This document shows positions 18,701 through 39,451 of a stretch of 64,000 nucleotides of DNA, in pieces. The notes beneath the pieces were generated by a model. That model saw only the letters and a list, made by a program, of their open reading frames with translations, was not told the origin of the DNA and made no database searches. Source of the stretch: Candidatus Saelkia tenebricola (GTDB lineage: Bacteria; Omnitrophota; Gorgyraeia; Kaelpiales; Kaelpiaceae). The position numbers were made by a program, and so were the translations under genes. The stretch is taken from positions 16,320-80,319 of the forward strand of contig JAVCDA010000002.1 in assembly GCA_030765145.1 (NCBI GenBank), read 5' to 3'. Position 1 is the stretch's first letter. The number at the start of each line of letters is the position of its first letter.

Positions 18701-19638
18701 CTTAAATCCCCTTTGTCTTTTTTAATTAAGGTACGTTTTGATACAGCTTTTTTTATCCACCTTCTATCCTTGATAAATTCTAATACATAATGAGGCTTTT
18801 TGGGAAGCAAGAAAATCCAAAGATATATATCGTATAAAATTGTGAATGGAATATGTTTTATAAAATTCGCTAAATTTTCGTTTTTAATAAAAGTAGAATA
18901 ACGGTTTTTAATAAGCTGGAATTTAAATTCGCTTGATAAGTTGAGATATCCTAATCGTTTTCTCCTTTTCCAACCTGTTATTCCCCTATGGTGGTAAGCT
19001 ATGGCATAAGGAGTAAAATAACTGTTCCATCCTGCATTATGAGCACGCCAGTTTAAGTCTAAATCTTCCAAATATGCCTGATAATCTTCATCAAAATATT
19101 CCTGCTCCATTTTAATATCAAATAGCATTTCTTTTTTATAAAGCGCACAAGCACCTGATACACCCCAGACATAACCTTCTTCAAACTGATTTCTTTCTTT
19201 CTGTTTATAACCTCTTTCATGTGCACGCCTGGCGAGTGTCAGGAATTGACCGGTAGAATCTATTTTCTTTGTTTGTGGATTTAACAACTTGCCTGATATA
19301 GAGCCTATTTTTCTGTCTATTTTGAACTTGGGTAATACCTTTTCCAAATAATCATTGTTTAAGAAAACATCGTTATTAATGCAAAATAAATATTCCCCAT
19401 TTGAGGATATAATGCCTTGATTGTAAGATTTAGAGACCATCATGTTTTGACTGTTTTGAATTATTTTAGTCTGGGGAAAATATTTTTTTACCATTTCAAC
19501 TGACTCATCATTCGATGCATTATCCACTAAAATAACCTCAATATTTTTATATGTCTGGTTAAAAATAGAGTTAAGACAAACCTTTAAGATTTTTTTTCTG
19601 TCTTTATTTATTACGATAAAAGATACAAGTCCATTCAT
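18688..19638 (-). CDS. family 2 glycosyltransferase
   Basis: VSFIVINKDRKKILKVCLNSIFNQTYKNIEVILVDNASNDES, a GT-A N-terminal motif with a DxD region. Confidence 0.8.
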   Translation of the reverse strand: MNGLVSFIVINKDRKKILKVCLNSIFNQTYKNIEVILVDNASNDESVEMVKKYFPQTKIIQNSQNMMVSKSYNQGIISSNGEYLFCINNDVFLNNDYLEKVLPKFKIDRKIGSISGKLLNPQTKKIDSTGQFLTLARRAHERGYKQKERNQFEEGYVWGVSGACALYKKEMLFDIKMEQEYFDEDYQAYLEDLDLNWRAHNAGWNSYFTPYAIAYHHRGITGWKRRKRLGYLNLSSEFKFQLIKNRYSTFIKNENLANFIKHIPFTILYDIYLWIFLLPKKPHYVLEFIKDRRWIKKAVSKRTLIKKDKGDLRWLS

Positions 19639-21363: not shown

Positions 21364-22453
21364 CTTTAAGAATAGAAATTAGTTTTTGAGTCTGGTTTTC
21401 TACTGTGTAATTATTCTCTATCTTTTCTCTGGCATTTGCACCGATTTTTTTTCTTAAAGAAGAATTTCCAGCGAGTTTTAGAATCGATCCTTTAAATTCC
21501 TCTTTATTTTTAGCCAGCAACCCATCTACTCCATCGTTAATAATATTTTGAGTTTCTCCAAAAGATGTTGCTATAACAGGAATACCTTTGGCCATAAATT
21601 CCAGTATTTTAACCGGAAATTTTGCTTCTGTGAATTTGTTTTCTATTGCAATCGGGAAGATACCTATATCAACATTATCTAAATATCGGGGTATATCACT
21701 TGGCGTAATCCAGCCTTTAAATGTCACATTTTTAATCCCCTCTTTTTTTGCCTCATCTTGAATGTTGGATTTCCATATTCCATCACCGATAATTTCTAAT
21801 TGTATATTAGGAATATCTTTAACTATTTCCAATATCCATTGCAGATTGATAAAATCTTCATGTCTGAACATTGTTCCTATCCAGGCTAATATCGTAATTT
21901 TTTTGTTCATATGGTTTTGTTTTATCTTAAAGTGCTCTATCTCTATTCCGGGAGCAAGATAAAATACACGGGGGGTAATATTTTTTATGTAATTATAAAG
22001 AAAGTTGCTTCCGGCCAAATTAAATAAAGCTTTTTTAGCTGTTATTTTAAAAATAAATTCGGCTTTTGATTTAGGTAAGAATCCCAATATGGGAGTTATA
22101 TTTTCCCTGAATTCCCAATCGTCAATGTCATAGATGTATTTTATCTTATTTTTAAATGCATAAAAAAGAGGTCCGAAAGAATGATAATTCAGGCGCTGGA
22201 TAATCAAAAGTGGGTTTTTGAATTGTTTAAGGTATGTATATGCTTTTTTATTATATTTTATTTTATCAGCTATAGTAAGAAAACTTTCTAAATTACCGCT
22301 TAAAGCTCCTAAGTTTTCAGAAAAGGACAATACACAAGACGTATAACCTTGTTTTTGTAAACAATTTGAGAAATTATATGCTCTATACCTTGCCCCGGGT
22401 AGAACTTTGCTTTCTCTGGTAATGAATATTATTTCGTAATTTTTTAAATTCAT
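21356..22453 (-). CDS. family 1 (GT4-type) glycosyltransferase
   Basis: C-terminal GT-B motif EAKFPVKILEFMAKGIPVIATSFGETQNIINDGVDGLL. The annotated start overlaps the upstream gene by 71 nt, so the true start may be slightly downstream. Confidence 0.75.
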   Translation of the reverse strand: MNLKNYEIIFITRESKVLPGARYRAYNFSNCLQKQGYTSCVLSFSENLGALSGNLESFLTIADKIKYNKKAYTYLKQFKNPLLIIQRLNYHSFGPLFYAFKNKIKYIYDIDDWEFRENITPILGFLPKSKAEFIFKITAKKALFNLAGSNFLYNYIKNITPRVFYLAPGIEIEHFKIKQNHMNKKITILAWIGTMFRHEDFINLQWILEIVKDIPNIQLEIIGDGIWKSNIQDEAKKEGIKNVTFKGWITPSDIPRYLDNVDIGIFPIAIENKFTEAKFPVKILEFMAKGIPVIATSFGETQNIINDGVDGLLAKNKEEFKGSILKLAGNSSLRKKIGANAREKIENNYTVENQTQKLISILKDV

Positions 22454-23615
22454 ATCCTTTCAAAACCTGCTCATAAATTTGCAACAAATTCTCAGCCGTT
22501 GTGGGCCAGTTATATTTTTCTTCAGCTCTTTTTCTTGATAAAACTGCCATCTTCTCTCTTAAGGCAGGTTGAGATAACAGTTCATTTATTCCGCCAGCAA
22601 ACACAAGATGATTACCTGGTTCTACCAGAATTCCTACTCCACCAACCATATTCCTGACCTCGCCTACGTTACTTGCTACAATGGCTTTGCCAGAAGCTAG
22701 GTATTCAGCTAGTTTTAAGGGGCTTTTAGATTGAGTTATGGCATTATTTTCAAAGCAGGCTGCACAAACATCGGCTGCTGCTATATATTTTGCTGTTTCT
22801 TCATGCGGAATAAATCCTGTAAAGATAATCTTATCTCTTAGCCCTAAATCTAAAGCTAATGATTTCAGTTCGCTTAATCTATACCCTCCGCCAACTATAA
22901 AAAACATAGCTGTAGGATACCATTGAATCACAACACTTACAGCATGGATAAATAGTTCTGCATATTGTGCTCCATGCAGCTGACCTAAATACAATACGAT
23001 TGGTCCAGTTAAACGGTATTTTTCTCTTATCAGGGTATTTTTATTTTGAGGATTAAAAATAGTCAGGTCAGCTCCTACATGAGCAGATGTGGTTCTTTTT
23101 GGGGATACTCCATATTCATTTGTAGCAAGCTGTATGAGACGATTACTTGAACAAGAGATTGAATCGACAAATTTCGGTAAAGCCCTTTCTAAGATCCACA
23201 TATATATCCCTATAAGAGGAGAAGCTGGTTTACCATAAAAATAAATTTTTGTTTCCCAATCATCCCAATCATAATGAATGGGTTTGTTCTGAATCCAGGA
23301 AGCTATGATTGCAGGGATAGATGCATAATGGAAACACTTTTGAAAATGCACTATATCAGCCCATTTTATTTCTCTTAAAAGTTTAACAGTGTTTTTAAAA
23401 AGGATATTTATTCCTCTTCTTCTATCCATTGGTATGATTTCTATGTTGTGCCAAATAAACCGCTGTTTTTTTAAATCTTTTAAATGTAGCGGAAAATATG
23501 CAATCTTTACACTGTGGTTAACTTTTATAAATTCCCGAGCTAAAGATTTAATTCGTATAGTCCAGGGTTCTGAGAGATCAAATAAATCATGCGGATGTAT
23601 CATAAATATTTTCAT
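22383..23615 (-). CDS. family 1 (GT4-type) glycosyltransferase
   Basis: GT-B C-terminal motif TGFIPHEE...PLKLAEYLASGKAIVASNVGEVRNMV, with an E-x7-E-like region. Confidence 0.8.
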   Translation of the reverse strand: MKIFMIHPHDLFDLSEPWTIRIKSLAREFIKVNHSVKIAYFPLHLKDLKKQRFIWHNIEIIPMDRRRGINILFKNTVKLLREIKWADIVHFQKCFHYASIPAIIASWIQNKPIHYDWDDWETKIYFYGKPASPLIGIYMWILERALPKFVDSISCSSNRLIQLATNEYGVSPKRTTSAHVGADLTIFNPQNKNTLIREKYRLTGPIVLYLGQLHGAQYAELFIHAVSVVIQWYPTAMFFIVGGGYRLSELKSLALDLGLRDKIIFTGFIPHEETAKYIAAADVCAACFENNAITQSKSPLKLAEYLASGKAIVASNVGEVRNMVGGVGILVEPGNHLVFAGGINELLSQPALREKMAVLSRKRAEEKYNWPTTAENLLQIYEQVLKGYEFKKLRNNIHYQRKQSSTRGKV

Positions 23616-23621: not shown

Positions 23622-26600
23622 TTAACTTCCGGGGAATATCACCATTCGCCGTAACTTTCTTAAAATCCAGAGGTAAGTTTCAGCAATTAAAGTTAATAGA
23701 ATTATTAAAACCAGATATGGCAGCTTATACATTCTCACCCTAGGTAGAATCACAGTAGATTGGATGTTTTTTTCTTTTTTAGGTAAATCTTGGATTGAAT
23801 TAACAATAGTCTTTAGCGTTTCAATGTCATGTTTCTCAACATTTATTTGTTTACCTTCCTCTATATTTGTCTCCATTACCTTAAATCCCAACTGTTTGGC
23901 AACTTCTAAGATGCGTTCTCCTCTTGTTTTTCTTATATCGTATGTATTGCCATCATACGTTTGCCAGAGATAATGCCAATTATTTTGAGGAAGAGGTTTT
24001 AAATTGTATTCAGTTATGTTTTTATATATTGCTGTTCCGGCAATTAAATGAAGTGTGTTTATTGATTTTATAGTGTTGATGTAATTGCGATTTCTTTTTA
24101 TAAATTCAATTGTTTCTTGAAATTCCTTTTCTCCTTCAGATGGAAATCCAATCATAGTAAATATTTCTGTCTCAATTCCGGCTAAAGATGATTTTTTTAT
24201 AAATTGTTCCGCATCGCTTGATAAATAGGATTTTCGCATTTTTTTTAAGACTTTATCCGATGCACTTTCAAGTCCTATTTGAAGATTAATACAACCTGCT
24301 TGTTTCATTTTTTTCAAAATAGGTATATCCATATCTTTTCGAGGTATTGCTTCTCCTGACCAGGTAATATTCAATTTGTTTTTTATAATCAAATCGCATA
24401 ATTTATCCAATACTTTAGGATTACCATTTATTAAAGGATCGCAGATTGTGAAGTTTTTTATATTGTTATGGTGAAGATGATACTTTAGTTCCTGAAATAT
24501 ATGTTCGGCAGTTCTTGATCTATATTTAGATACGAGCTCACAGTTTATGCAAAATGCGCATTTACCTGTGCATCCCCGAGACCATTCCAAAATCAATGAT
24601 TGCCCGAAGTAAAGGTTAAGATTAAAATCTTCATAAGTTGGGAAAGGTAATGTATCTAAATCCTCAATTAACTCACGAGGAGTATAAATCCATAAGCCGT
24701 TTATTTTGGAAACAGTTCCCTTTATAATTCCAGAGCATTCCTTATCAAGTAGCTCAATCAATGCTTCTTCCCCCTCTCCCACAACGAAATAGTCAATATC
24801 ATCAGATATATTATCTATAAAAATTTTACGGGAATGTTCACTTAAACATGCCGGTCCACCGAGAATAATTTTTTTTGTTTTATCACGTTGTTTTATTCTT
24901 TTAATAAATTCAATAGTAATCCGTTCTTTGGGGTCTACAATTGAAAATCCTATATAGCCTGCTTCTGTTTCAAGTATTCTATCAACTGCTTCATTTATTT
25001 TTTGATCAAAAAATTTACACACTACAGGAAACCAGTCTTCTTCACTCCAGAAGTTTTTATTTTCTACATGCCACATCAATTTAAGATCTTCTGGTGCACT
25101 ATTATAAAAATCTATATTGAAGTCACAAAGAACAGCTTTATATCCATGGTTCTTTAACATACTTGCTAAGTAAGCCATACCTACGGGAGGATTGTTAATT
25201 CCCCAGGGCGGTGTAGTAATAAGTGCTATATGAGGTTTATTGGATACACTTGTTTTTCTTTGAGGTAATGCTGTTGCTTCTGTTGTATATGAAATATCTA
25301 ATTTATTAAGAAGATTATGGACTTTTTCTACCCTTTCCATACGTATATCAAAGTTATTTACATCCCTTATGAACCAGTTGGAATCGGGATTCTCCTTGGG
25401 GAATTCTATGTGATATCTTCCAGGATTAGAAAACAATTCGGATCCTGCCATTATGAATAAAGGATTTACAGATTTGACAAAATCAATGTGGTTTTTGTTT
25501 TCTTTTATAAAATCCAGAGTTAAATTTAAATCATCTGCTGTCTCTTGTGGAAAACCGACAATAAAATATAATACATTTTGAATACCTGCTTTTTTTGTCA
25601 ATTCCAGTGTGTGTGAGGAATCTTTAGTTGAGAATGTTTTACCCATAAGATGTAATATTTTATCACTTCCGCTTTCTGTTCCGTATTCCAATCTGAAGAA
25701 TCCGGCAGCTTTCATTTTCTTAAGCAAAGACAGGCTCATATCTCTTGGTATAGCAAGACCGGTAAGGTTGATAGAGAGATGGTTTTTTATTATAAGGCTA
25801 CAGACTTCATCTAGCCATTTTAAGTCTGCATTAACTGAAGAATCTACAATTGAGAAATAAATTTTGCCCAAAGTGTTTTTGTAGAACTTAAGCTCCTCAA
25901 CTATTCTTGTGGGAGACTTTTTTTTGTAGTATTTGCTCAGAACTTTAAAATCACAGAAGGAACATTTGCCGATACATCCCCGGGACCATTCAACAGCCAA
26001 GCTGTTTTTTGCAATGTATGAACCAAGAGAAAAATTTTTATATTTTGCATAAGAATAGGAATCTAATTTTTTTAAAGTTTTTATCGAAGATGTAATTCTG
26101 CTTTTATCTTTAAGAACAATGATGTTTTCTACATCGTTTATGGATTGGTTGTATGTTATTTTATCAATCAGTTTAGTAATGGCCTCTTCACCCTCTCCGC
26201 ATACGATAACATCAACTTTATCTTTTATTAATTCTAATAATTCTTCTCGCTGCTCTTTTACAGTAACTGAAATTCCTCCCAGTATTATCCATTTTTTAGG
26301 TGCGTGTTTCTTTATCTCCTCAATCACCCATTTAATCATCAAATACATTGAATTTGAGGGAACTGAAAATCCTACGATTTTAGCATCATTGTTTTTCTCA
26401 AGAGTTTGTTTTATTTCATTAAAAATATCACTATATTTTTTTAGAAGGTAAAAAATAAATTCTGGTTTTCTCCAATATAAAGTATGGTCCATTCGCCAGT
26501 ATTTTTTGTCTTCTTCTTTTACTTTATTGTATAAGAAAATATTTATGTCCAAAACCTCAACATCAAAACCTTTATTTTCCAAAACTTCTGATATTACGGC

Positions 26601-27554
26601 CAGGCCTACAGGCGGCCTTTCAATACCCCAGGGAGGAGTGATAATTAATTGAATCTTTTTTTTAAAACTACTGGGGGTAGTTTGTGCACATTCACATTTT
26701 AGGCATATAAAATTATTATCTGGAGGAATTTCACCCTGTATTTTCTTTCTAATGGCGGTATATTCTTGTCCTGTCCAGATGTTTTGGATAGATTGTTTTT
26801 TTAAATTACCCAATATAACTTCTGATTTCCAGTCCATACAGCATAAGACTACATCTCCGTTACTCAATATGTGAATCATTTCATTAGTCCATATGGAATT
26901 GCAACCGTATATTTTTTTATGTTTTATTTTTGGAAGGATCGGTACATTTCCGGCCCGGGATATCGGATTTGAATAAACATTAATGCGAGATAATCCTTGA
27001 TTCTCCCAGAAACTTACAGCTTCTTCTATTTCTTTATCATTGAGATATGAGTTTTTAAGCATTGTTACCATGATAAAGTCAGAGATTTCACCCTTAATTT
27101 GTTTAGAGATTTTTATGAAATTCAGCATATTATCCAGTGCTTTTTCAGGATCTATTCCCATAACTGAAGATATAGTGTTGTTTCTGATGCCATGCAGGCT
27201 GAAACCTATCCAGTCAATGTTGCTCTCTATCAATCTATGTGTGAAATCAGAATCCAGTAAAACACCATTGGTAAGGATATGTGTAGAAACTTCAGGTGAT
27301 TTTTTTTTGATGTAAGTAATTTTATCCGGCAACTCTTTATCCAAAAGAGGTTCATTCATAAGATAGGGCATTATAACTTGGACTTCTTTTTGTTTTGAAC
27401 ATTCGTCGATAATGTTTTTAAAAAGATTGCCATCTATTTTTTCACCGGAGATTGTATCTTTAATATGAGGGTAGGGGCAGAAAAAACATTTCCCGTTACA
27501 TCCGGATATAGTTTGAATCATTATATGAGTTGGGAACTTAAGTTTTGGTGTCAT
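23622..27554 (-). CDS. giant three-module radical SAM protein (SPASM-type rSAM + two B12-binding class B rSAM modules) with C-terminal membrane anchor
   Basis: There are three CxxxCxxC motifs: CNGKCFFC (N-terminal; downstream SPASM-like Cys-rich region GDVVLCCMDW...FICLKCEC), CIGKCSFC and CTGKCAFC. The latter two are each preceded by a Rossmann-like B12-binding segment (ITPPWGIERPPVGLAVISEVL... and ITTPPWGINNPPVGMAYLASML...). The C-terminal hydrophobic helix is LPYLVLIILLTLIAETYLWIL. Confidence 0.85.
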   Translation of the reverse strand: MTPKLKFPTHIMIQTISGCNGKCFFCPYPHIKDTISGEKIDGNLFKNIIDECSKQKEVQVIMPYLMNEPLLDKELPDKITYIKKKSPEVSTHILTNGVLLDSDFTHRLIESNIDWIGFSLHGIRNNTISSVMGIDPEKALDNMLNFIKISKQIKGEISDFIMVTMLKNSYLNDKEIEEAVSFWENQGLSRINVYSNPISRAGNVPILPKIKHKKIYGCNSIWTNEMIHILSNGDVVLCCMDWKSEVILGNLKKQSIQNIWTGQEYTAIRKKIQGEIPPDNNFICLKCECAQTTPSSFKKKIQLIITPPWGIERPPVGLAVISEVLENKGFDVEVLDINIFLYNKVKEEDKKYWRMDHTLYWRKPEFIFYLLKKYSDIFNEIKQTLEKNNDAKIVGFSVPSNSMYLMIKWVIEEIKKHAPKKWIILGGISVTVKEQREELLELIKDKVDVIVCGEGEEAITKLIDKITYNQSINDVENIIVLKDKSRITSSIKTLKKLDSYSYAKYKNFSLGSYIAKNSLAVEWSRGCIGKCSFCDFKVLSKYYKKKSPTRIVEELKFYKNTLGKIYFSIVDSSVNADLKWLDEVCSLIIKNHLSINLTGLAIPRDMSLSLLKKMKAAGFFRLEYGTESGSDKILHLMGKTFSTKDSSHTLELTKKAGIQNVLYFIVGFPQETADDLNLTLDFIKENKNHIDFVKSVNPLFIMAGSELFSNPGRYHIEFPKENPDSNWFIRDVNNFDIRMERVEKVHNLLNKLDISYTTEATALPQRKTSVSNKPHIALITTPPWGINNPPVGMAYLASMLKNHGYKAVLCDFNIDFYNSAPEDLKLMWHVENKNFWSEEDWFPVVCKFFDQKINEAVDRILETEAGYIGFSIVDPKERITIEFIKRIKQRDKTKKIILGGPACLSEHSRKIFIDNISDDIDYFVVGEGEEALIELLDKECSGIIKGTVSKINGLWIYTPRELIEDLDTLPFPTYEDFNLNLYFGQSLILEWSRGCTGKCAFCINCELVSKYRSRTAEHIFQELKYHLHHNNIKNFTICDPLINGNPKVLDKLCDLIIKNKLNITWSGEAIPRKDMDIPILKKMKQAGCINLQIGLESASDKVLKKMRKSYLSSDAEQFIKKSSLAGIETEIFTMIGFPSEGEKEFQETIEFIKRNRNYINTIKSINTLHLIAGTAIYKNITEYNLKPLPQNNWHYLWQTYDGNTYDIRKTRGERILEVAKQLGFKVMETNIEEGKQINVEKHDIETLKTIVNSIQDLPKKEKNIQSTVILPRVRMYKLPYLVLIILLTLIAETYLWILRKLRRMVIFPGS

Positions 27555-30500
27555 GTGTTCTTAGAGAATATTCTTTCGTGAATTTCTTCATTGTGCATTA
27601 AATTGTCACATTCTTTAAAACAATCCATTTTTGCAAAATAAGGTTGGGTTTTTTTTAACAATTTAGCGCGAGCTCTAAATCCATTGTAGAGCTGAGAATA
27701 CCAGATGTCGTTGAATGATTGTAGCATAATGTTGCCCATCGGGTAATTTATACCTCTACAGCAAGGTATGATTTCTCCATTCCCCAAGAGGCGGGTGAAA
27801 AACCATCCCACATAACACGGTATCTTATCAATTCTGTTTCTGTCATAATTTCCGGTTGGGGTTCTTGATTCAATTCTTTCTTTAAAACCAATTAGATTCT
27901 CTATTTCTATATTGTTATCTTTTAAATAGTTTTCTGCTTTGATTAATTCTTCTTTTGATTTAATGTATTGATTTTCGTTTAAAAGAAGAAAATCAGTTTC
28001 TCCTTTAAAAACGTCTGCAAATGTAAAATAAACAGCATCTGCACCTGTTTCTTTGGCAAATTGTGCCATTTGGAATATTTTATCAAAATTATTGTTTGTT
28101 ATTACATTTGCGATAGTAACTTTAGTTTGTTTTCCCTTTAAGGAGTTTAATATTGTTATGTTTTCTCTGATCTTTTCAAAATCTGCAATTTTTGTTCCAG
28201 GATGCATTTGAGTATAAGTGTAAGCATCTGGAGCCCAAATACTTAGGGCCATTTCATCCAGATTGAGTTTTATTATATCTTTTAACATGCTTTCTTTGAT
28301 ATTGTAGAAATTTGTTGTAAGAGTTGTTTTTATATTTCTTGATTTTGTCAGGTCCAATAAATCCAGAATTCCTTCATAAAGCAGAGGTTCTCCCCCACCT
28401 GTAAAACGTATTATTCTTGCCCCCATACCAGATGCCTCATCAATAAAAGATGCCATTCTTTTATACGGTATTTGTTTGGCTAACCACTCAGGTGAAGGTT
28501 TATGTTCTTTAAGATGTGTAGAATACAACCAGCAGGCATTGCATTTCAACTGGCATTTATTGGTTACATCAATCACTATGTGCTCCGGACCCTGATAAGC
28601 ACATCTACCGTTAATTATCCCAGCAGTTAACTTAATGGGTGTTTTAAGCAAAGGTTTTTTGTTGATAGGTAATTGGGGAGCTTTTTTTCTCTTATATCGT
28701 TTATACTTTACAAATAGATTAAGAAAAAATCTTTCTACATGTGTAAGTGACATTATTTTTTTATGCATATGGATATTTCTTCCGATATCATCACAGCTTT
28801 TATAACAGCCAGCTTCTTCTGTATTGGGATCGTTGCCTATCAGTTTAAAAAAATTATCATTCTTCGCATAACAAAGCATCTTCTTCCGACAGTATATCTG
28901 TTTCGGCGAATTCCATATTTGAGAGAATTTTTCTTCATACAAATTACCTACAGGAAACCTGTGAGATTTAAGGCAGGTATTGATATTACCATCAGGTAAA
29001 ATCCTTGCAAATAACCAGCCTATATAACATGGAATAGCATCGATAATATTTTTATCGTATTTGGCTTCTAAAGTTTCTTTCTCCTTGCTGATTCTTCTTA
29101 AGAACTGGTCAAATCTAAAGAGATGTACTCCCTTGTAATCGAAATTGAGCATCATTTCTCTTGCCACACTTTGACATGTTTTATGTAATTGTTTTCTTTC
29201 CTCCCTATTTAAAGCTAATGCCTCAGTTTTACCGGGTATAGTATCTATCAGAGTAAATTCCACAGATTCACATTTTGTATATTGAGCAAATTCAATCATT
29301 TGTTTTATCTCATGGTAGTTTAAATTGAATATCACCTGATAAAGTTTTATATAAGGTGTTTTGTTTTTTTGTTTGTTAAGATATGTCAAATTCTCTTTAA
29401 TCTGTGCAAAAGTAGCTTCGGTTTTGTTAGGATGAGTTCTAGCATAAGTTTTTGGAGTTCCTGCCCAAACACTTACGGTTAAATGATCAACACCGATGTC
29501 GATAATACGGTCTATTTTTTCCTTACTTAGAAGCGTAAAATTAGTATTTACATAGCAAATAAGACCCAGTTTTTTTGTGTATTCTAAAATCTGCATTATC
29601 TCGGGATGCATAAATGGCTCACCGCCACCGGAATAATAAACCTCTTTTGCGCCAAGCGTCTTAGCTTCATCTAAAAGTTCCTTTATTATCGCTTTTGGCA
29701 GGTATTGTTTTTTCATCTCTTGCGACATTTTTTTTTCTTCTAAAAGAGGAGAGTTGCACCAGCATCCTATACAATCATTATTACAATCATTCGTCAGATC
29801 GATTTGAATATGAAACGGTCCTTTGTAGGCAAATTCACCGTCAAAAACACCTATTATATCCAGGTAGTGATTAATAAAATTTCTGGGGATTAAAAATTTT
29901 GTTATTCGTTTAAAAGTAGCCTTTCTTCCGTGTGTTTTAAAAGATTCTTTGAGCAGTTTTAACGGTTCTTTTTTTTTATATACACTCGACGGGTCACAAA
30001 AGCAATTTTTATCATAATCCTGTGTTTTTATTTCTAGTTCCAGTCTTGCAAAATGAGGAAAATAAGAACCGGAAAACAATTCGATTTTATGGGGCCCATT
30101 TTTAAGGTATACTTCTATTTCGGGAAAAAGTTTAAGGTGTTTTTTAGTCCAGCCCGAAGTAGAGCTTTTCATAATCTTACCAAAATATTCACCGTCTATT
30201 TTGATCTCAACAGGTCTGGGTATTTCAGCAGCATATTTACTGAAGAGCTTATAGAGACCAGGTTCATTAGTATCAAAGAGATATTCTGCAAATCCAAAAC
30301 CTGCACCGCCGTCTATAACAAGATTATTACCGAAACCATTATCTGCTTTGTTTAAATTACCCCGGGAAAAACTTTGAGAAGGAATAATAATCTTATTCTT
30401 GTTATAAATAGTTTTTATGGATGGCTGCTTTTGAAATTCCGTTTTTTTTGTATGTTCCAAAACTTTTTTATGCACCATTAAATTCATCCCCAGATTATCG

Positions 30501-33337
30501 CAAACTTTGTAACAATTTATTTTTTCGAAATATTTGTCTTTTTTATTCAGAAAACGCGTTTTATGCCTAAATTCATCATAAAGGTCTGAATTCCAAATAT
30601 GGGAAAATCTTTTTTCTTTAACATTACCTAATATTAATTCATCTGCTTTGCAGCACGGTTTTACATCACCATTTGTTGTTATGCGTGTAAAATTCCATCC
30701 TGCATAACACGGTAGAGTATCTATAAAATCCCCATCCAAATAAGTTGTTTCTTTAACGATTGAATTAACTCTTCTTATAAAAGTTTCGATGCCTAAAATT
30801 GTTAAAAGATGTACTTCAAACGGAGTGTTTTTATCTTTATCATAACAGGAAGTGCGTAAAACACATTTTTTACATGTATTGTCGGAAAAATGATATTTCA
30901 CATGTCTTACATCTTTATCAGGATAAGGTGTTTTTCCTGTACTGTAGTTACCTTTAGGGCATTTTGCCATCCTAATCCCGTTAATTAATTGAAAATTTGA
31001 GTCTATTTTCTTTAAAAATCTTCCAAAATCAGAGAGTTCTTTACGGTGACTAGGGTTATCATAAATCAATAAATCTCGATCTGATATGAAATCAGGTATA
31101 TAATCCGACCTGTTTTTGAATTTATTAAGTATATCTTCAATCTCTTCTGCTTCTTTTTTTGTAATAAGCAAATGGTCTGTTTTTCCAGGGATAGAATCCA
31201 TAAATTGAAATTCTAAATAATCAACACCCATGTTAAGAGCAAAATCGAGCATTTCAGGTATATTTCTGTAATTTACTTTAGAAATCACATTGTATATTTT
31301 AAGAGCAGGAGTATCGTTTTTTCTCGTTTTTATTAAATATTTAAGATTGTTTCCTATTTTTTCAAACATATCTTCGCTTGATCCAGGATGGGTTTTACAA
31401 TATGTCTTAGCATCCCCAGCCCATAGGCTTGCTGTAATGTAATTTAATCCTAATCGGATGAGGCGAGTAATTGTTTCTTTATCAAAAAGAGTGAAGTTTG
31501 TTATCAAATGACATCTCATTCCTCGGGCTTTTATATATTTAATAATTTCAAAAATTTCCGGATGCATTAATGGTTCTCCACCGCCTGTGATCTGTATTTC
31601 TTCGGTATCCAGCTTATGAAGTTCATCAACCAGATTCTTTATAACGTTAAGGTCAAGATGTTTTTGAAGTTCGGGATCCTGGCGATTTTTGTTTATAAAT
31701 GGTGAGTAAAGCCAGCACCCAATGCATGAAATATTGCATTTGTTGGTTACGTCAATAACAGCAATTTTAGGTCCGCAATATGCTCCGTTTCCTTTTAAAA
31801 TACCTTTAAGCAGATCATTGCTTTTTCTGGTTATATCCGTTATTTCTTTGGTTTTGGAGAATGAAGACATATGTTTTTTTACATTAAGATAAGAGTTTTT
31901 CTTTTCCCAGGCAAATTTAATTCCATAGAGTTTCACACAATCCAGAAAAAGTTTGAGTTCTTGCGGTAATGTTTTTTTAAGCAAAAGTTTGTTTTTATGC
32001 TCGAACCAGCTTCGATATGCTTTGTTTAAATAATTCTCCAATTCCTCAGGGGTGACATTCTCAATGTTTATTACCGCTGCTTTATGACCGTCAAATAACC
32101 CCCAGTCATTCGGTTCTTCCCAGCCTCGCTCTTTAAGAATATTAAAATAACTTGTTCCGGGAAATGGTGTTGTTATTGAGAACTGAACGGAATAGGGATT
32201 CAATTTTTTTGCTAAGTCAATTGTTTCTTCTATTGTTTCTTTTGTTTCGCCCGGCAAACCGAATGTAAAGGTTAGATGAGTTTTAATCCCCAGCTTGTTT
32301 GTTAAATGTATCATTTTTACAGCATGTTTTAAGTCCATGTTTTTATTGGCGTTGTCGACTAATTTTTGAACTGCGGACTCAACGCCGTATTTTACAGAAT
32401 AAAGACCTGATGAGCGAAGCTCACATAGTAGCTCTTCGTCCATTAAATCAGGCCTTGCCATAATTGCCCAAGGGAATTTTAATTTCCTATTTTTTATTTC
32501 TTTGGCAATGTTAATAAGAAATTTCTTATTAACATTTGCTGTATCATCGTCTATATAAATAGATTTAAATCCCATTTCTTTTATTAGATATTCCATTTCA
32601 TCTACAACTTTATAAGGATTGCGTAATCGGTAAGTACTACCTTGATACATAATGTGCGGCCAGAGACAAAAAATACATTCATAAGGACATCCTCTTGAGG
32701 CCCACATCTGAACAGATGGAAGAGGCATGCCTCCAGGAGCATCAACGTAGTTTTGCATTTGGATATTATTTCTATGTGGCCAGGGTAATGAGTCCAATTC
32801 TTTTATAAGAGGCCTGGGGTGGTTTTTACACAATTGCCCGGAGTGCCTGTATATCAATCCTTTAACAGATGAAAAATCCTTATTCTGTTTTATTGTTTGC
32901 GCTAATTCAAGAAGAGTTTCTTCATATTCTCCTACCATTACAAAATCTATAAAAGGTTTGTTTTCTAAAAACGACAAGTTTCTCATGTTGTATTCAGGTC
33001 CACATACAACAATCGGTGCGATATTTCTCAATTGTTCTAACAGAGATAAGTCATACTGTAATGATGGTGTTGATGTCTCTGCTACAATTAGATCAGGATT
33101 TTTTTGTTTTAAGAGTTTCATGAAATCTGATATTTCAATCTGTTCTGCAATAGCGTCTATAAACTCTGCCTGAAATCCATTTTTTATAAGTAAAGAAGTA
33201 GCATATCCCAGGAAAAATGGATAAGGTAAATAGTCTTTCTCGCTATAAGGATGTTTTAGATGAGGCCACCTGGATCCGGCTCGCACTCCCCAAAGGCCGT
33301 TACTTTTCCAGGGCATATTGGTAATTATTATTTTCAT
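27551..33337 (-). CDS. giant four-module radical SAM protein (B12-binding class B rSAM + three paralogous SPASM-domain rSAM modules)
   Basis: There are four CxxxCxxC motifs: CPYECIFC (in a B12-binding module, N-terminal ~470 aa), CNISCIGC, CNNDCIGC and CQLKCNAC. Each of the latter three is followed by GGGEP and a SPASM-like Cys cluster (CY.GW.F.R....G...PCC...C...C). The three SPASM modules are mutually similar, indicating internal triplication. There is a 4-nt overlap with the downstream rSAM gene. Confidence 0.85.
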   Translation of the reverse strand: MKIIITNMPWKSNGLWGVRAGSRWPHLKHPYSEKDYLPYPFFLGYATSLLIKNGFQAEFIDAIAEQIEISDFMKLLKQKNPDLIVAETSTPSLQYDLSLLEQLRNIAPIVVCGPEYNMRNLSFLENKPFIDFVMVGEYEETLLELAQTIKQNKDFSSVKGLIYRHSGQLCKNHPRPLIKELDSLPWPHRNNIQMQNYVDAPGGMPLPSVQMWASRGCPYECIFCLWPHIMYQGSTYRLRNPYKVVDEMEYLIKEMGFKSIYIDDDTANVNKKFLINIAKEIKNRKLKFPWAIMARPDLMDEELLCELRSSGLYSVKYGVESAVQKLVDNANKNMDLKHAVKMIHLTNKLGIKTHLTFTFGLPGETKETIEETIDLAKKLNPYSVQFSITTPFPGTSYFNILKERGWEEPNDWGLFDGHKAAVINIENVTPEELENYLNKAYRSWFEHKNKLLLKKTLPQELKLFLDCVKLYGIKFAWEKKNSYLNVKKHMSSFSKTKEITDITRKSNDLLKGILKGNGAYCGPKIAVIDVTNKCNISCIGCWLYSPFINKNRQDPELQKHLDLNVIKNLVDELHKLDTEEIQITGGGEPLMHPEIFEIIKYIKARGMRCHLITNFTLFDKETITRLIRLGLNYITASLWAGDAKTYCKTHPGSSEDMFEKIGNNLKYLIKTRKNDTPALKIYNVISKVNYRNIPEMLDFALNMGVDYLEFQFMDSIPGKTDHLLITKKEAEEIEDILNKFKNRSDYIPDFISDRDLLIYDNPSHRKELSDFGRFLKKIDSNFQLINGIRMAKCPKGNYSTGKTPYPDKDVRHVKYHFSDNTCKKCVLRTSCYDKDKNTPFEVHLLTILGIETFIRRVNSIVKETTYLDGDFIDTLPCYAGWNFTRITTNGDVKPCCKADELILGNVKEKRFSHIWNSDLYDEFRHKTRFLNKKDKYFEKINCYKVCDNLGMNLMVHKKVLEHTKKTEFQKQPSIKTIYNKNKIIIPSQSFSRGNLNKADNGFGNNLVIDGGAGFGFAEYLFDTNEPGLYKLFSKYAAEIPRPVEIKIDGEYFGKIMKSSTSGWTKKHLKLFPEIEVYLKNGPHKIELFSGSYFPHFARLELEIKTQDYDKNCFCDPSSVYKKKEPLKLLKESFKTHGRKATFKRITKFLIPRNFINHYLDIIGVFDGEFAYKGPFHIQIDLTNDCNNDCIGCWCNSPLLEEKKMSQEMKKQYLPKAIIKELLDEAKTLGAKEVYYSGGGEPFMHPEIMQILEYTKKLGLICYVNTNFTLLSKEKIDRIIDIGVDHLTVSVWAGTPKTYARTHPNKTEATFAQIKENLTYLNKQKNKTPYIKLYQVIFNLNYHEIKQMIEFAQYTKCESVEFTLIDTIPGKTEALALNREERKQLHKTCQSVAREMMLNFDYKGVHLFRFDQFLRRISKEKETLEAKYDKNIIDAIPCYIGWLFARILPDGNINTCLKSHRFPVGNLYEEKFSQIWNSPKQIYCRKKMLCYAKNDNFFKLIGNDPNTEEAGCYKSCDDIGRNIHMHKKIMSLTHVERFFLNLFVKYKRYKRKKAPQLPINKKPLLKTPIKLTAGIINGRCAYQGPEHIVIDVTNKCQLKCNACWLYSTHLKEHKPSPEWLAKQIPYKRMASFIDEASGMGARIIRFTGGGEPLLYEGILDLLDLTKSRNIKTTLTTNFYNIKESMLKDIIKLNLDEMALSIWAPDAYTYTQMHPGTKIADFEKIRENITILNSLKGKQTKVTIANVITNNNFDKIFQMAQFAKETGADAVYFTFADVFKGETDFLLLNENQYIKSKEELIKAENYLKDNNIEIENLIGFKERIESRTPTGNYDRNRIDKIPCYVGWFFTRLLGNGEIIPCCRGINYPMGNIMLQSFNDIWYSQLYNGFRARAKLLKKTQPYFAKMDCFKECDNLMHNEEIHERIFSKNT

Positions 33338-34098
33338 TACACGTTAAATTCCAACACGATTTTAAAAATTTTATGACAGCCTGCATTATATATCTTCTCG
33401 TTTAGTAATGCAGCCTGAACAAAATATCCGTTTGAGAATCTGGTTGTATTTTGGATGATTATTTGTGATACATTAATAGAGTCAATAATAGAAAATTTTA
33501 ATTTTCCAATCTCTGAAGAATTATCCCTAATTTTAAACGAAACTTCTTTTTCGTTTAGTGGAAATTTAACAATATTTTTAATATTGGTTGTTTTAGGTAG
33601 AGAAAACTCTCTATTTTTCACCGATATCTGATTATTAATGCAAGTATGATTTAAGATGATTCCAGATTGAAATTCTTCGATAGAAATGCTGTTTTCCAGA
33701 TTCAAAAACACTTCCCATATCATTGTGTTAGATTTTAATGAGATTTCCCAGAGTTGCGTAAGCGGTAAATTCCACCAGTATTGTTTTACAAGAATTTTAT
33801 TGTTATTGAGTTTCTGAAAAGAAAATTTTGATTGGATAGAGTCATGATATTTATCCAAATTTTTCAATCTACTGCTTAATCCCACATTATTTGTTAGAGA
33901 TATATCTTTAAAGTTTATATGTATCTGAGTGGGATTAGCGGTAACCCTAATATCATTTGCATTGACAGATATTGTTTTTAAGCCTTTTATTTTTTTTGAT
34001 TTTATTTTAAACGAAACATAGTCCCAGGTTTTCATAAAAGTTAATAGAACACCATTTTCTTTAAAATGATGGAAAGTTTTTTTAACTATTTCCATCAT
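33337..34098 (-). CDS. hypothetical protein, paralog of adjacent gene and of Wzt C-terminal extension
   Basis: No signal peptide. It shares motifs with ORF 34082..34762 and with the Wzt C-terminus (DISLTNNVGLSSRL vs KNIILTKNLGLYSSIY vs QAITTDLGIFASY; QYWWNLPLTQLWEISLKSNTMIWEV vs GEWINAPHRQTWDFILTDNTLQWNIT). Confidence 0.45.
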   Translation of the reverse strand: MMEIVKKTFHHFKENGVLLTFMKTWDYVSFKIKSKKIKGLKTISVNANDIRVTANPTQIHINFKDISLTNNVGLSSRLKNLDKYHDSIQSKFSFQKLNNNKILVKQYWWNLPLTQLWEISLKSNTMIWEVFLNLENSISIEEFQSGIILNHTCINNQISVKNREFSLPKTTNIKNIVKFPLNEKEVSFKIRDNSSEIGKLKFSIIDSINVSQIIIQNTTRFSNGYFVQAALLNEKIYNAGCHKIFKIVLEFNV

Positions 34099-34762
34099 TT
34101 TCTTCTATCTTTATCGTAGTTTGTAAAGTTATAGAATAATCTTCTGCTATTGATTGTTGGGAAGGATTTATAAATAGCGTTTGTATTATTCGGGCGGAAT
34201 CATTAGGAGATGTGTTTTCTATGGCAATAAGAGCATTTGGTTCTGTTAGAGGAGGAACAATTTTTAAAAGCGGAAGTTTTTTTGTTTTATCTGCACTTAA
34301 TATAACTTCTACCCCTTTTATCTTAGGACTAGACCATATTCTATCCCATAGTAAACCGTTATAATTAGTAAAAAACTCAGGAAATTTACCTGCTGCATAA
34401 TCATTGATTTTCCAAGAGGTATACATCTCATTCAGCATGAAATTTTGCTGAATCATATTAATTGTAAAATTATTTAGATTCTTACAAGTAATATTCCACT
34501 GTAATGTATTGTCTGTAAGAATAAAGTCCCATGTTTGCCGGTGTGGTGCATTAATCCATTCCCCATAAAGTTTAAGCTTATCTTGAGTTATCTCAATAAC
34601 TTCCCAAGTTGCAAAACGGGAATCAAACCATTTTTGTTCATGATATATACTGGAATATAACCCCAGGTTTTTTGTTAAAATTATGTTTTTGTATGATAAA
34701 CTGCAATATCCCAGTAGAAAATCAATTTGAATGCGTTTGTTTTTTAAAGACAGTTCTTTCAT
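34082..34762 (-). CDS. hypothetical protein, paralog of adjacent gene and of Wzt C-terminal extension
   Basis: See the previous feature; 17-nt overlap with the downstream gene and 4-nt overlap with wzt. Confidence 0.45.
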   Translation of the reverse strand: MKELSLKNKRIQIDFLLGYCSLSYKNIILTKNLGLYSSIYHEQKWFDSRFATWEVIEITQDKLKLYGEWINAPHRQTWDFILTDNTLQWNITCKNLNNFTINMIQQNFMLNEMYTSWKINDYAAGKFPEFFTNYNGLLWDRIWSSPKIKGVEVILSADKTKKLPLLKIVPPLTEPNALIAIENTSPNDSARIIQTLFINPSQQSIAEDYSITLQTTIKIEENDGNS

Positions 34763-36668: not shown

Positions 36669-37430
36669 TCAAATTTTTTTCAGGATTGAATTCTCCATTT
36701 TTTTATATAAAAAATAAGCCAGAATCAAAAATAATACAGCAAATATGAAAGCGTAAACATTGCCTCTACCCATAAAAGATGAGTAGTTTTCCAGCAATAC
36801 GCTTCTGTAAAGATCTATGAAATATGAAAGAGGATTACAATAAATTATAAATCTAAATCTTAACGGTACCATCAGAGGATTGTAGAAAACAGGTGTTAGC
36901 CAAAATAAAACCATAAGAACTGTTCCTAAAATGTGTTCTAAGTCTCTGATGTATAAATTGGTTATAGAAATTATAATCGTAACTGCTGCCAAAAATATAG
37001 TAAAGGAAACTGTTGGAATAATCAAGAGTATGAATTTATATAATAAAGCAGGATTATAAAAAGCAAAAACAGGCAGAAGTACCGCTATTCCTATTAAATG
37101 TTGAATTAGATTTGAACATGTTACAGAGAGAGGATACAAGAGATGAGAAAATGGAAATTGATGCATCATGGGTTTTTCTCTTACAAAAGCCTGGGTAGCT
37201 TCCGTTGTTAGATTGGTAAAATACAACCAGGGAATAAGCCCTGAAAGAACAAAAATATGAAAATCTTTCTGATCTATTTTGAGTACTTTCATAAAAACAA
37301 ATGTTATAGCAATCATTAGAATTATAGGTATCAAACCTGCCCACAAAATACCCAGAAAGGTAGAAGCATATTTGAATTTTAAATTTCTAATTGTTAAATC
37401 TCTTAAATTCTCGATGGTTTTTATTAGCAC
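36669..37430 (-). CDS. wzm: ABC-2 type polysaccharide exporter permease (Wzm/TagG-like)
   Basis: Six TM helices in 253 aa; adjacent to and co-oriented with the Wzt ATPase. Confidence 0.75.
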   Translation of the reverse strand: MLIKTIENLRDLTIRNLKFKYASTFLGILWAGLIPIILMIAITFVFMKVLKIDQKDFHIFVLSGLIPWLYFTNLTTEATQAFVREKPMMHQFPFSHLLYPLSVTCSNLIQHLIGIAVLLPVFAFYNPALLYKFILLIIPTVSFTIFLAAVTIIISITNLYIRDLEHILGTVLMVLFWLTPVFYNPLMVPLRFRFIIYCNPLSYFIDLYRSVLLENYSSFMGRGNVYAFIFAVLFLILAYFLYKKMENSILKKI

Positions 37431-38314
37431 CTGTTTCTCTCCTTGATAAAACTTTGCAATTCTTTTAATGCTGTTTTTGTATAGCTATAATTGCTTATTA
37501 ATAAAAATATTAATCGCGGCAGGTCATATAATAACAGGGATAAAATAATATAGGCCGTATTTTTAAGTTTAAAATATTTTAAAATAAGAAAATATCTGTT
37601 TCTAAAAGAAAGGTATTGGGCGTGTTTTGAATTTATATTGCTCCCGCCGCGATAATGATATCCAATAGCTTCGGGGATATATTCAAAACGGTATCCTTTA
37701 TTCTGAGCTCTGATAGCAACATCGAAATCTTCCACCAGATAATGTAGTTTAGAATCGAAATATTCTCCATTTGCACCAACTATGTTTTCTAACATCGATC
37801 TTTTATATACAGCTGCACATGCACATGGTCCGATGACTTTTAAAGAAGAGGCTTTAAAATTTTTATATAATTTTCCTGCTCCGTGGTCATAGAAACGATA
37901 GAATTTAGTTAATATAATACCTAAAGAATCAATACGCTTAGGATCTCTCATGTTTAAAACAGTACCTCCCCACATACCGGTATCAAACGATGCATTTAAA
38001 CTTCTGTGGATAATTTTAGAAATATAGTCTGGTTGTAAAATAACATCAGAATCAAGTGTCATAACATATTCAGAATTTGTGTTTTTTATAACCTGGTTTC
38101 TGGCAAAACATACTCCGTAATTTTTAATATTCCTAATAACAGGAATATTAAACTCGTTTAAAATATCCGCTGTATCGTCTTGGGAATTGTTATCAACAAC
38201 CCTTATTTCCACATAGGGATAATCTTGAGCTAAAACTGATTTTAGACATTTTTTAATAAACTTCCCGGCATTATATGCAGGTATTATCACCACTACCTTA
38301 GAATAACTATCCAT
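37424..38314 (-). CDS. family 2 glycosyltransferase
   Basis: VVVIIPAYNAGKFIKKCLKSVLAQDYPYVEIRVVDNNSQDDT, a GT-A N-terminal motif. Confidence 0.8.
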   Translation of the reverse strand: MDSYSKVVVIIPAYNAGKFIKKCLKSVLAQDYPYVEIRVVDNNSQDDTADILNEFNIPVIRNIKNYGVCFARNQVIKNTNSEYVMTLDSDVILQPDYISKIIHRSLNASFDTGMWGGTVLNMRDPKRIDSLGIILTKFYRFYDHGAGKLYKNFKASSLKVIGPCACAAVYKRSMLENIVGANGEYFDSKLHYLVEDFDVAIRAQNKGYRFEYIPEAIGYHYRGGSNINSKHAQYLSFRNRYFLILKYFKLKNTAYIILSLLLYDLPRLIFLLISNYSYTKTALKELQSFIKERNRC

Positions 38315-38945: not shown

Positions 38946-38950
38946 ATTAA

Positions 38951-39451
38951 TTAAAATTTTTCCCAGTGCAGCAATTCGTCAAGAGGTCTCTTCTCTGCCT
39001 TAGTAATTAAATCATTTTTAGGATAACCCAAAGATATTATGCTTATTAGATTGTATTCTGATGGTGCTTTTAACAGTATTTTTATATCTGGAACATAATC
39101 TTTTTTATCTCCGGCAATCCAGCAGGATGCTATTCCATAACTCGTTGCAGCAAGCAAAATATTTTCAGTTGCAGCTGAACAGTCCTCAAGGTAATATTTC
39201 GTTGGCCTGGAGAATATAACTATACAAGCAGAAGCTTCTTTTAAAAAAAGTGCGTTTCTGTTTGTTAAGCGGGAAATTTCTTTAAGAGTTTCTTTGTTCT
39301 TTATTACAATAAATTCCCAAGGTTCTTCTCCTCTTGCTGTAGGAGCCATATGACCGCAGTCGATTAAGTCTAATAAGATTTCATCGGAGATTAGTTTGTC
39401 TTTATATTCCCTAATGCTGCGTCTTTTTTTTATTATTTCTCTTGTCCCCAT
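38951..39451 (-). CDS. nitroreductase-family flavoprotein
   Basis: KKRRSIREYKDKLISDEILLDLIDCGHMAPTARGEEPWEF is a nitroreductase N-terminus; it lies in tandem with the previous nitroreductase. Confidence 0.75.
   Translation of the reverse strand: MGTREIIKKRRSIREYKDKLISDEILLDLIDCGHMAPTARGEEPWEFIVIKNKETLKEISRLTNRNALFLKEASACIVIFSRPTKYYLEDCSAATENILLAATSYGIASCWIAGDKKDYVPDIKILLKAPSEYNLISIISLGYPKNDLITKAEKRPLDELLHWEKF

Follow-up and report, generated by a model that had tools for sequence, protein, structure and literature searches.

Assembly of bacterial polysaccharides by the Wzm/Wzt route is thought to rely on glycosyltransferases (GTs) and simple caps. To our knowledge, all radical S-adenosylmethionine (SAM) enzymes described as acting on carbohydrates belong to small-molecule pathways, namely those of aminoglycosides, nucleoside antibiotics and hopanoid head groups. 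In this study, a stretch of 64,000 nucleotides (nt) from Candidatus Saelkia tenebricola was analysed (GenBank assembly GCA_030765145.1, contig JAVCDA010000002.1, positions 16,320 to 80,319 of the forward strand; hereafter the window). It encodes a protein of 1928 amino acids (aa) with four radical SAM modules, in one block with GTs and a Wzm/Wzt-type ABC-2 exporter. This system would combine radical SAM sugar chemistry with ABC-transporter-dependent glycan assembly. We read the 1928-aa protein, with a probability of roughly 60%, as a cytoplasmic enzyme that tailors a lipid-linked glycan in several radical steps prior to export, a reading that draws on sequence comparison and structure models. 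In the literature searched, there was no description of this protein, of the domain here called X, or of radical SAM enzymes in Wzm/Wzt pathways.

Several described systems share parts of this layout. AprD4 (the diol dehydratase of apramycin C3'-deoxygenation) and HpnJ (formation of the hopanoid cyclitol ether) have the same two-domain layout as module 1 (M1), the N-terminal module of the 1928-aa protein, but M1 scores well under both cutoffs (HpnJ 249 vs. 577.6; AprD4 90 vs. 500) and is fused to three more modules. BtrN (butirosin 2-deoxy-scyllo-inosamine dehydrogenase), HygY and NeoN consist, like modules 2 to 4 (M2 to M4), of a radical SAM core and a short four-Cys domain. The Cys spacing of BtrN is C-x17-C ... 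C-x2-C, whereas the second pair is C-x3-C here; the match to BtrN covers only about 70 residues, and the core is nearer to that of SuiB. Moreover, here three such modules and a carbohydrate-binding module (CBM) are fused in one chain, M2 has an extra insert, and the genes lie in a glycan-export operon, not in an aminoglycoside cluster. AprD4, HpnJ and BtrN act on sugars or sugar moieties, and BtrN and AprD4 work on small molecules. The SPASM peptide maturases (SuiB, anSME, PqqE and the sactisynthases) have the Pfam SPASM match in common with the 1928-aa protein, but here the seven-Cys two-cluster motif, the recognition element and the precursor peptide are absent and the context is glycan synthesis.

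The two radical SAM domains of FbiC catalyse successive steps of one pathway. FbiC, a fusion of CofG and CofH, resembles the 1928-aa protein in carrying more than one radical SAM core per polypeptide (PMC11917521). However, FbiC has two such domains against four, they belong to unrelated families, and proteins of the FbiC type have neither auxiliary-cluster domains nor a CBM. In Wzm/Wzt O-polysaccharide assembly, as in E. coli O9a (WbdA/WbdD) and Klebsiella, the sugar-binding domain of Wzt recognises the glycan (PMC9445017, PMC3482155, PMC11231755). The locus studied here resembles these systems in its ABC-2 permease, its ATPase with a C-terminal extension, its GT2 and GT4 enzymes, its predicted cytoplasmic assembly and its large multi-domain enzymes. 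There, the caps are added by SAM-dependent methyltransferases or kinases and Wzt ends in a Wzt_C (PF14524) jelly-roll, whereas here Wzt carries X and eight radical SAM modules accompany it.

Module anatomy and conservation of the 1928-aa protein

The gene is a single uninterrupted open reading frame (ORF) of 1928 codons with an ATG start (Table 1). An NCBI entry with no other name than "radical SAM protein", from the metagenome-assembled genome (MAG) of Candidatus Saelkia tenebricola (Omnitrophota, PVC group), matches its product at 100% identity. In NCBI, JGI and ENA assemblies, another seven protein clusters of 1913-1954 aa share 61-76% identity with the 1928-aa protein over the full length, with the module order unchanged. 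The cluster-binding Cys residues, the GGGEP motifs and the Cys residues of the M2 insert are all invariant across the eight full-length orthologues, and the linkers between modules are conserved as well. The GC content is flat across the gene (0.30-0.36), and the 1954-aa orthologue is identical in two JGI samples. Since the same protein and operon recur in independent assemblies at 61-76% identity, an assembly chimera, against which a preliminary description of this DNA had asked for a check, can in practice be excluded; synteny and the flat GC content speak in the same direction. No transmembrane (TM) segment was found in the protein (highest Kyte-Doolittle 19-mer score 1.17), and it is predicted to be soluble and cytoplasmic.

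For comparison, the protein was cut into M1 to M4 and a linker between M2 and M3 (residues 966-1160). Four intact CX3CX2C motifs, one in each module, and GGGEP at residues 585, 1237 and 1647 (M2 to M4), all invariant in the orthologues, place the protein in the radical SAM superfamily. Pfam Radical_SAM (PF04055) matched four stretches with 237.6 bits in total (cutoff 29.5, E 1e-70), and one B12-binding domain was matched at the N-terminus (34.2 bits, cutoff 32.1). The SPASM profile of Pfam matched three stretches (E 3e-29), covering positions 1-53 of its 67 only. The four radical SAM modules in one chain with a B12-type N-terminus, and the three paralogous modules with a SPASM match, were thus recovered as the preliminary description had them, with all four of its motifs present. 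Hereafter, modules of the B12 type are called B modules and those of the SPASM/Twitch type T modules.

Some details of the motifs differed from that description, which also gave no strand (the ORF is on the minus strand). GGGEP is followed by LMHPE in M2 and FMHPE in M3, as described, but by LLYEG, without "PE", in M4. The C-terminal domain of M2 to M4 has four conserved Cys in the pattern C-x17-C ... C-x3-C, and a fifth Cys comes from "PCC" in M2 and M4, whereas M3 has "TCL". The distal pair, given earlier as C..C, is C-x3-C instead (CYKVC, CYKSC and CFKEC). The seven-Cys SPASM motif was not found, as its C-x2-C-x5-C-x3-C block is absent from the C-terminal domain of M2 to M4. The SPASM label therefore holds as a Pfam match and is otherwise nominal, the four-Cys pattern being that of a BtrN-like Twitch domain. 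Because of this four-Cys pattern in place of the seven-Cys motif, one auxiliary cluster is predicted for each T module. In the three-module alignment, M2 alone has an extra insert of about 70 aa. Its Cys pattern, C-x28-C-x2-C-x5-C, lies upstream of the Twitch-like domain and is invariant in the eight orthologues; this insert may bind an additional metal or Fe-S centre. M3 is the most conserved module, and its type is also the most widespread as a stand-alone protein. The connector of about 50 aa that precedes M3 had no family match.

Self-BLAST of the whole protein gave only the identity match, and the modules were then compared pairwise. M2, M3 and M4 matched one another with blastp E values of 1e-64, 6e-48 and 2e-71 and 32-44% identity, collinear over their whole length. 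The mutual similarity is thus significant at E 6e-48 or better, which settles the module alignment proposed as a check in the preliminary description. Aligned together, the three modules stay collinear from some 25 residues ahead of CX3CX2C to the last Cys pair. M1 and the linker had no significant match elsewhere in the protein in pairwise blastp.

The paralogy of the three modules stands, but the earlier term "internal triplication" is misleading, as each module is closer to its own orthologue in distant proteins and loci than to its neighbours. Stand-alone proteins of the M3 type (487 at E<=1e-20) share 50-59% identity with M3, against 44% for M2 and 34% for M4. In P0123 and P0127, which lack a B module, an M2-type module is followed by a CBM, an M3-type and an M4-type module, and each of their modules is nearest to its own counterpart (37-39%, 57-60% and 43-47% identity). 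The lineage represented by loci L005 and L012 has a B-X-M3-M4 protein and a separate gene of the M2 type, and M2, M3 and M4 occur as separate genes in other lineages such as L016, L024 and L019. By these comparisons, M2 to M4 are ancient, sub-functionalised paralogues, each of its own conserved subtype. Since separate orthologues of M2, M3 and M4 exist elsewhere, three distinct reactions are favoured over one processive reaction. The preliminary description had suggested processive or iterative chemistry on a repeating substrate; a polysaccharide remains the likeliest substrate, but the separate module orthologues favour three different steps.

Predicted sugar-binding folds and the export operon

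The linker has no conserved Cys motif, and Pfam had no match on residues 966-1160 at E<=10. An exhaustive HMMER search of 1.84 billion (1.84e9) representatives with the linker returned 198 proteins at E<=1e-3, over a core of about 120 residues. The nearest homologues are other radical SAM/SPASM proteins, in which the matching stretch, likewise without a Pfam model, lies after the SPASM domain, before the radical SAM core or after the B12-radical SAM module. The remoter ones are multi-repeat proteins with Pfam CBM_35 or CBM_6, and the Pfam match overlaps the linker match in P0132, P0180 and P0236. An AlphaFold model of the linker domain, made with a 47-sequence alignment, was all-beta with a mean predicted local distance difference test (pLDDT) of 95. 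The top 50 Foldseek matches of this model in the PDB were all CBM35 or CBM6 (best E 7e-8, TM-score about 0.7). With high confidence from these models, the linker is a divergent cytoplasmic CBM35/6-fold module, predicted to bind carbohydrate. The substrate-binding beta-sandwich guessed at in the preliminary description is thereby borne out as a modelled fold. Modules of this kind usually recognise glycan chains or their termini.

The second fold predicted to bind sugar was found just upstream of the gene. Two small ORFs of 253 and 226 aa are paralogues (hhalign probability 96.6%), and a domain of about 220 residues of the same family, X, lies right behind the nucleotide-binding domain (NBD) of the Wzt-like ATPase (aa 240-420; hidden Markov model i-E 7e-14). 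Pfam had no match at E<=10 on the 253-aa ORF, the 226-aa ORF or the C-terminus of Wzt. A word-indexed search with the 253-aa ORF gave only 2 proteins, and the family was recovered by a local jackhmmer search over the proteins already collected. The 226-aa ORF was modelled by AlphaFold with a pLDDT of 89, and aldose 1-epimerases are the nearest fold relatives. By this model, X is a new domain of about 220 aa with a galactose-mutarotase fold. The catalytic His/His/Asp/Glu set that would make it a galactose mutarotase or aldose 1-epimerase was not found. Because its conserved residues are mostly Trp and the His/Glu catalytic pair is not conserved, we infer from the model that X binds sugar rather than catalysing mutarotation.

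Wzt_C (PF14524) was not detected in the Wzt-like ATPase, and X, with its mutarotase fold, fills that position. The rest of this ATPase (aa 430-620, window 34759-35334, minus strand) matched neither the X profile nor any Pfam family, including Wzt_C; relatives have further X copies at this place. In other Omnitrophota proteins, X fills the gaps between radical SAM modules, with the architectures B-X-T-X (a class of about 1394 aa), X-B-T (1150-1250 aa), X-B-B and X-X-B (1077 aa). In P0028 (1900 aa), Wzt-X-X-B-X-T forms one chain. Another relative of the B module, P0107 (1236 aa, JGI metagenome), begins with X and has precomputed Pfam matches to Intein_splicing and a LAGLIDADG homing endonuclease, which suggests an intein within a radical SAM protein.

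The genes of the block follow in the order GT2, Wzm, Wzt, X (226 aa), X (253 aa), the four-module protein, a three-module radical SAM protein of 1310 aa, GT4, GT4, a single-module radical SAM protein of 573 aa and GT2. They lie on the same strand and overlap or are at most 47 nt apart. In total, the block encodes eight radical SAM modules (four B and four T), four GTs and the ABC-2 exporter. The exporter was assigned to the Wzm/Wzt type from the pair of ABC2_membrane and ABC_tran together with four GTs, features that are common to O-antigen, teichoic-acid-like and capsule export. The two B12-radical SAM modules of the 1310-aa protein are paralogous (E 8e-81), and its single TM helix spans about aa 1273-1300. 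The gene for this protein is kept beside that of the 1928-aa protein in all orthologous loci, and the gene order is identical in Candidatus Kaelpia imicola and on two JGI metagenome contigs.

Among the matches, four modules per chain were the maximum observed (8 protein clusters), confined to the Saelkia/Kaelpia clade. Fusions of two and three modules of these families are common in Omnitrophota, so the rarity ascribed to multi-radical SAM fusions earlier holds for the four-module form only. B modules are also fused to GT2, GT4 or TPR (P0106-P0120), and in one case (P0375) a T module is fused to GT4. We further compared loci from GTDB species representatives that encode an M1-type module and span at least 15 kb (53 in all). 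Homologues of both Wzm and Wzt were present in 26 of the 53, and GT2/GT4 homologues in 35. At distant Omnitrophota loci there are further genes for an amine-oxidase-like flavoprotein, a WecA/MraY-type PF00953 transferase and PMT_2, DegT and AsnB-like proteins. The modular system consists of about 7-8 B and T modules encoded with GTs and a Wzm/Wzt-type ABC-2 exporter. The 1928-aa protein is the largest fusion form of this system, which is a conserved feature of Omnitrophota with scattered occurrences in MAGs of other anaerobes. At one locus (L019 9953-24621, on a 249-kb contig of the MAG "archaeon isolate SI047_bin43"), 12 single-module radical SAM genes are consecutive, one of the B type and then eleven of the T type (339-520 aa); this locus also has Wzm, Wzt, GT2 and GT4 homologues, and so shows the system unfused and larger still.

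Table 1. Coordinates of the radical SAM block in the window and of the parts of the 1928-aa protein (rSAM, radical SAM)
Feature	Position	Strand	Basis or remark
GT2 glycosyltransferase	37424..38314	-	Domain search
Wzm-like ABC-2 permease	36669..37430	-	Pfam ABC2_membrane; multiple hydrophobic segments
Wzt-like ABC ATPase, 620 aa	34759..36621	-	Pfam ABC_tran; NBD, X (aa 240-420), 200 aa unmatched
226-aa ORF, stand-alone X domain	34082..34762	-	Paralogue of the 253-aa ORF
253-aa ORF, stand-alone X domain, predicted galactose-mutarotase-like fold	33337..34098	-	Stop/start overlap with the 1928-aa gene
Whole ORF, 1928 aa	27551..33337	-	B12-rSAM, Twitch-like rSAM, CBM35-like, Twitch-like rSAM, Twitch-like rSAM
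Module 1, aa 1-505	31823..33337	-	B12-binding-type domain and rSAM core, CPYECIFC at 217; Pfam
Module 2, aa 506-965	30443..31822	-	rSAM core, CNISCIGC at 534; Twitch-like C877, C895/896, C942, C946
Module-2 insert, residues ~790-835	30833..30970	-	C793, C822, C825, C831
CBM35/CBM6-fold module (predicted), aa 975-1110	30008..30415	-	Remote homology, AlphaFold, Foldseek
Connector of ~50 aa before module 3, aa 1111-1160	29858..30007	-	58% mean identity among orthologues
Module 3, aa 1161-1565	28643..29857	-	rSAM core, CNNDCIGC at 1185; Twitch-like C1437, C1455, C1511, C1515
Module 4, aa 1566-1928	27554..28642	-	rSAM core, CQLKCNAC at 1595; Twitch-like C1841, C1859/1860, C1906, C1910
1310-aa protein: SPASM-type rSAM, B12-rSAM, B12-rSAM, C-terminal TM	23622..27554	-	Start overlaps the stop of the 1928-aa gene
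Two GT4 glycosyltransferases	21356..23615	-	Domain search
Single-module B12-rSAM, 573 aa	19642..21363	-	Closest paralogue of module 1, E 9e-54
GT2 glycosyltransferase at the end of the conserved block	18688..19638	-	Synteny

Proposed glycan tailoring before export and the alternatives

Because there are two sugar-binding folds, X on the exporter ATPase, fusions of Wzt and of GTs to radical SAM modules, an invariant operon and sugar-acting relatives, we believe that the substrate is a carbohydrate. In a 2026 preprint on giant proteins of Omnitrophota, radical SAM domains are reported to co-occur with sugar-metabolism domains. The glycan would be lipid-linked and built by the GTs of the cluster. 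The 1928-aa protein would be a soluble scaffold that keeps four different radical tailoring activities on this glycan, the CBM and X domains holding the radical SAM modules in place, and the membrane-anchored 1310-aa and 573-aa proteins together with the free X proteins would complete the assembly. In each module, a 5'-deoxyadenosyl radical would take a hydrogen from a sugar C-H bond and so install a different modification. By analogy, candidate reactions are C-methylation, or an AprD4/HpnJ-like dehydration or ring rearrangement, for the B modules, and BtrN/HygY/NeoN-like oxidation or epimerisation for the T modules. Wzm/Wzt would then export the tailored glycan.

The analogies come from distant relatives. 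M1 matched HpnJ (TIGR03471) best among NCBIfam models, with 248.6 bits against 577.6, and its 573-aa paralogue scored 177 bits; HpnJ was rejected for M1, as the score is below the equivalog cutoff and no hpn genes lie within the window. Among solved structures, AprD4 was the best match of M1 (6fd2, E 1e-22), followed by TsrM, CysS and TokK, and all the NCBIfam models of class B methyltransferases were far below cutoff for M1. The best NCBIfam model for the T modules was the uncharacterised "tungsten cofactor oxidoreductase maturase" (86-112 bits, cutoff 380), and the Twitch model N_Twi_rSAM, whose cutoff is 170, gave each module 59-73 bits. Membership in HpnJ, BchE, PqqE, MoaA, anSME and W_rSAM_matur was rejected, all scores lying below the curated cutoffs. 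M4 matched SuiB (E 3e-10) over the core and the start of the C-terminal domain. The C-terminal 70 or so residues of M4 matched the Twitch domain of BtrN (E 5e-5), with C1859 and C1906/C1910 falling on Cys residues of the BtrN cluster.

Several observations weigh against glycan tailoring prior to export. No module reaches any curated NCBIfam cutoff, so the chemistry is unconstrained by family assignment. When a T module is compared as a whole with the PDB, the peptide-modifying enzyme SuiB comes out best, and SPASM/Twitch enzymes most often act on peptides. Cobalamin binding by the B modules is putative, and the B12-like domain of AprD4, the best structural relative, is not known to use cobalamin. 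The predicted folds of the CBM and X point to sugar binding of some kind, which fits a polymer as well as a monosaccharide, a nucleotide sugar or the head group of a glycolipid. Finally, genes for an initiating phosphoglycosyl transferase, an O-antigen ligase or a nucleotide-sugar pathway are missing from the block in the window, only PGM/PMM and Rpe being encoded upstream.

In the most serious rival, soluble monomers (nucleotide sugars or sugar phosphates) are modified before polymerisation, X and the CBM bind monosaccharides, and the fusion channels a precursor pathway. The fold of X is nearest to aldose 1-epimerases, which are monosaccharide binders, the characterised sugar-acting enzymes BtrN and AprD4 use small molecules, and PGM/PMM is encoded just upstream. 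We nevertheless consider this explanation unlikely. X is also found on the Wzt ATPase, and Wzt, X and radical SAM modules are one chain in P0028, which fits recognition of the export substrate and not of a nucleotide sugar. Glycan chains or their ends are the typical ligands of CBM35/6 modules, X has no conserved His/Glu catalytic pair and mostly Trp as conserved residues, and the neighbouring 1310-aa protein is membrane-anchored.

Somewhat less probable again is the modification of a membrane lipid or glycolipid head group (hopanoid-, tetraether- or ladderane-like), with the ABC-2 transporter moving the lipid. HpnJ itself probably modifies the sugar part of a glycosylated hopanoid, and in that respect this explanation merges with glycan tailoring. 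HpnJ is the best match of M1 and the 573-aa paralogue over the full length, both also match TIGR04072 ("lipid biosynthesis B12-binding/radical SAM"), and the T modules weakly match the tetraether synthase Tes, but the scores for HpnJ, TIGR04072 and Tes are far under their cutoffs (249 vs. 577.6, 124 vs. 360 and 50 vs. 450, respectively). Two radical SAM proteins of the block have TM anchors, and according to a preprint Omnitrophota carry homologues of the lipid radical SAM enzymes Mss and Hbs. Against this, the block holds four GTs and two kinds of sugar-binding domain, and no lipid-synthesis genes.

Maturation of a ribosomally synthesised and post-translationally modified peptide (RiPP), in which the peptide would be cross-linked or epimerised by the SPASM/Twitch modules, methylated by the B12 module and exported through the ABC transporter, seems to us quite improbable. 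This idea would account for the Pfam SPASM domains, for the streptide maturase SuiB as the best PDB match of a T module, for the low-scoring NCBIfam matches to sactipeptide, WgkB and ApyD maturases, and for the nitroreductase-family genes nearby. However, a RiPP recognition element (RRE) or PqqD domain was not found at E<=0.01, and M3 and M4, which begin about 25 aa before CX3CX2C, leave no space for an RRE ahead of them. The block, whose genes overlap or leave gaps of at most 47 nt, has no precursor-peptide ORF, and the protein was for these two reasons not assigned to the RiPP radical SAM maturases. The transporter is of the ABC-2/Wzm type and not a peptidase-containing exporter, and a peptide substrate would leave the CBM35 module, the mutarotase-like domains and the GT fusions unexplained.

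An artefactual origin of the long ORF, by chimeric assembly or by sequencing errors that fused separate genes, is hardly credible: its modules do occur as separate genes in other phyla and one orthologue, at L007, consists of two ORFs, but full-length orthologues of 1913-1954 aa with the order kept come from different assemblies and sources, one is identical in two JGI samples, the composition is uniform and the linkers between the modules are conserved. At L007 (690-6258, Candidatus Omnitrophica bacterium 4484_49), the two ORFs overlap and encode 830 aa (B-T) and 1041 aa (T-CBM-T-T); the split within M2 is probably an assembly frameshift or a real pseudogenisation.

Surroundings of the block and meaning for Omnitrophota

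The block is flanked by housekeeping genes (lepA, PGM/PMM, rpe, panB, gatAB, tsaD and trpAB), which marks it as part of the chromosome rather than an island. Two tandem nitroreductase/TM1586-family genes (38349-39451, minus strand) separate the first GT2 from lepA; locus L002 (JGI) has kept the pair and Candidatus Kaelpia one copy, and they may belong to the system, for instance as electron donors. Near the other end of the block, the 573-aa B12-radical SAM protein has about 85 aa more than its orthologues of 488-490 aa. This extension (19645-19902, minus strand) has a hydrophobic segment and then a stretch like the N-terminus of the nitroreductase family (ALYKRKSIRKYSREPLNISELSQLLWSA), and may be the fused remnant of a nitroreductase gene.

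Farther away in the window, a LarC-like gene (Ni_insertion) next to a LarB-like one (AIR carboxylase family) at 3942-5839 (minus strand) suggests biosynthesis of the nickel-pincer cofactor. At 5848-6714 (minus strand), a bactofilin fused to HTH_17 (169 aa) lies beside a stand-alone HTH_17 protein (115 aa); a cytoskeletal domain is rarely joined to one that binds DNA. ORFs of 196 and 560 aa (1636-3896, minus strand) had no Pfam match at E<=1e-5. The stretch 13604-15321 is the only sizeable non-coding or opposite-strand region and has a plus-strand ORF of 280 aa with a GTG start and no Pfam, tRNA or Rfam match. The tRNA and Rfam scans of the whole window were empty.

The phylum Omnitrophota is abundant and uncultivated, and its cells are very small and may depend on hosts. 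Candidatus Saelkia tenebricola has been described as an anaerobic fermenter from the anoxic Ace Lake (PMC8542988), a lifestyle compatible with oxygen-sensitive chemistry. We tentatively suggest that the system belongs to a class of polysaccharide tailoring not recognised so far, although our confidence in this falls short of even. In such a class, arrays of up to eight or more modules, fused to Wzt in some lineages, would act on the nascent glycan through CBM35-like and X domains and functionalise its C-H bonds after polymerisation. If this is true, these bacteria would carry surface glycans with chemistry unseen so far in bacteria.

Eight radical SAM modules, GTs, an exporter and two kinds of sugar-binding domain would together be a new logic for glycan diversification in anaerobes. 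New enzymology is also possible, with up to about 7-8 Fe-S clusters per chain and three unassigned radical SAM subfamilies. The two unmodelled families, X and the CBM35-like domain associated with radical SAM modules, could better annotate hundreds of metagenomic entries now called "radical SAM protein". Overall, the system would offer a handle on the cell surface of Omnitrophota.

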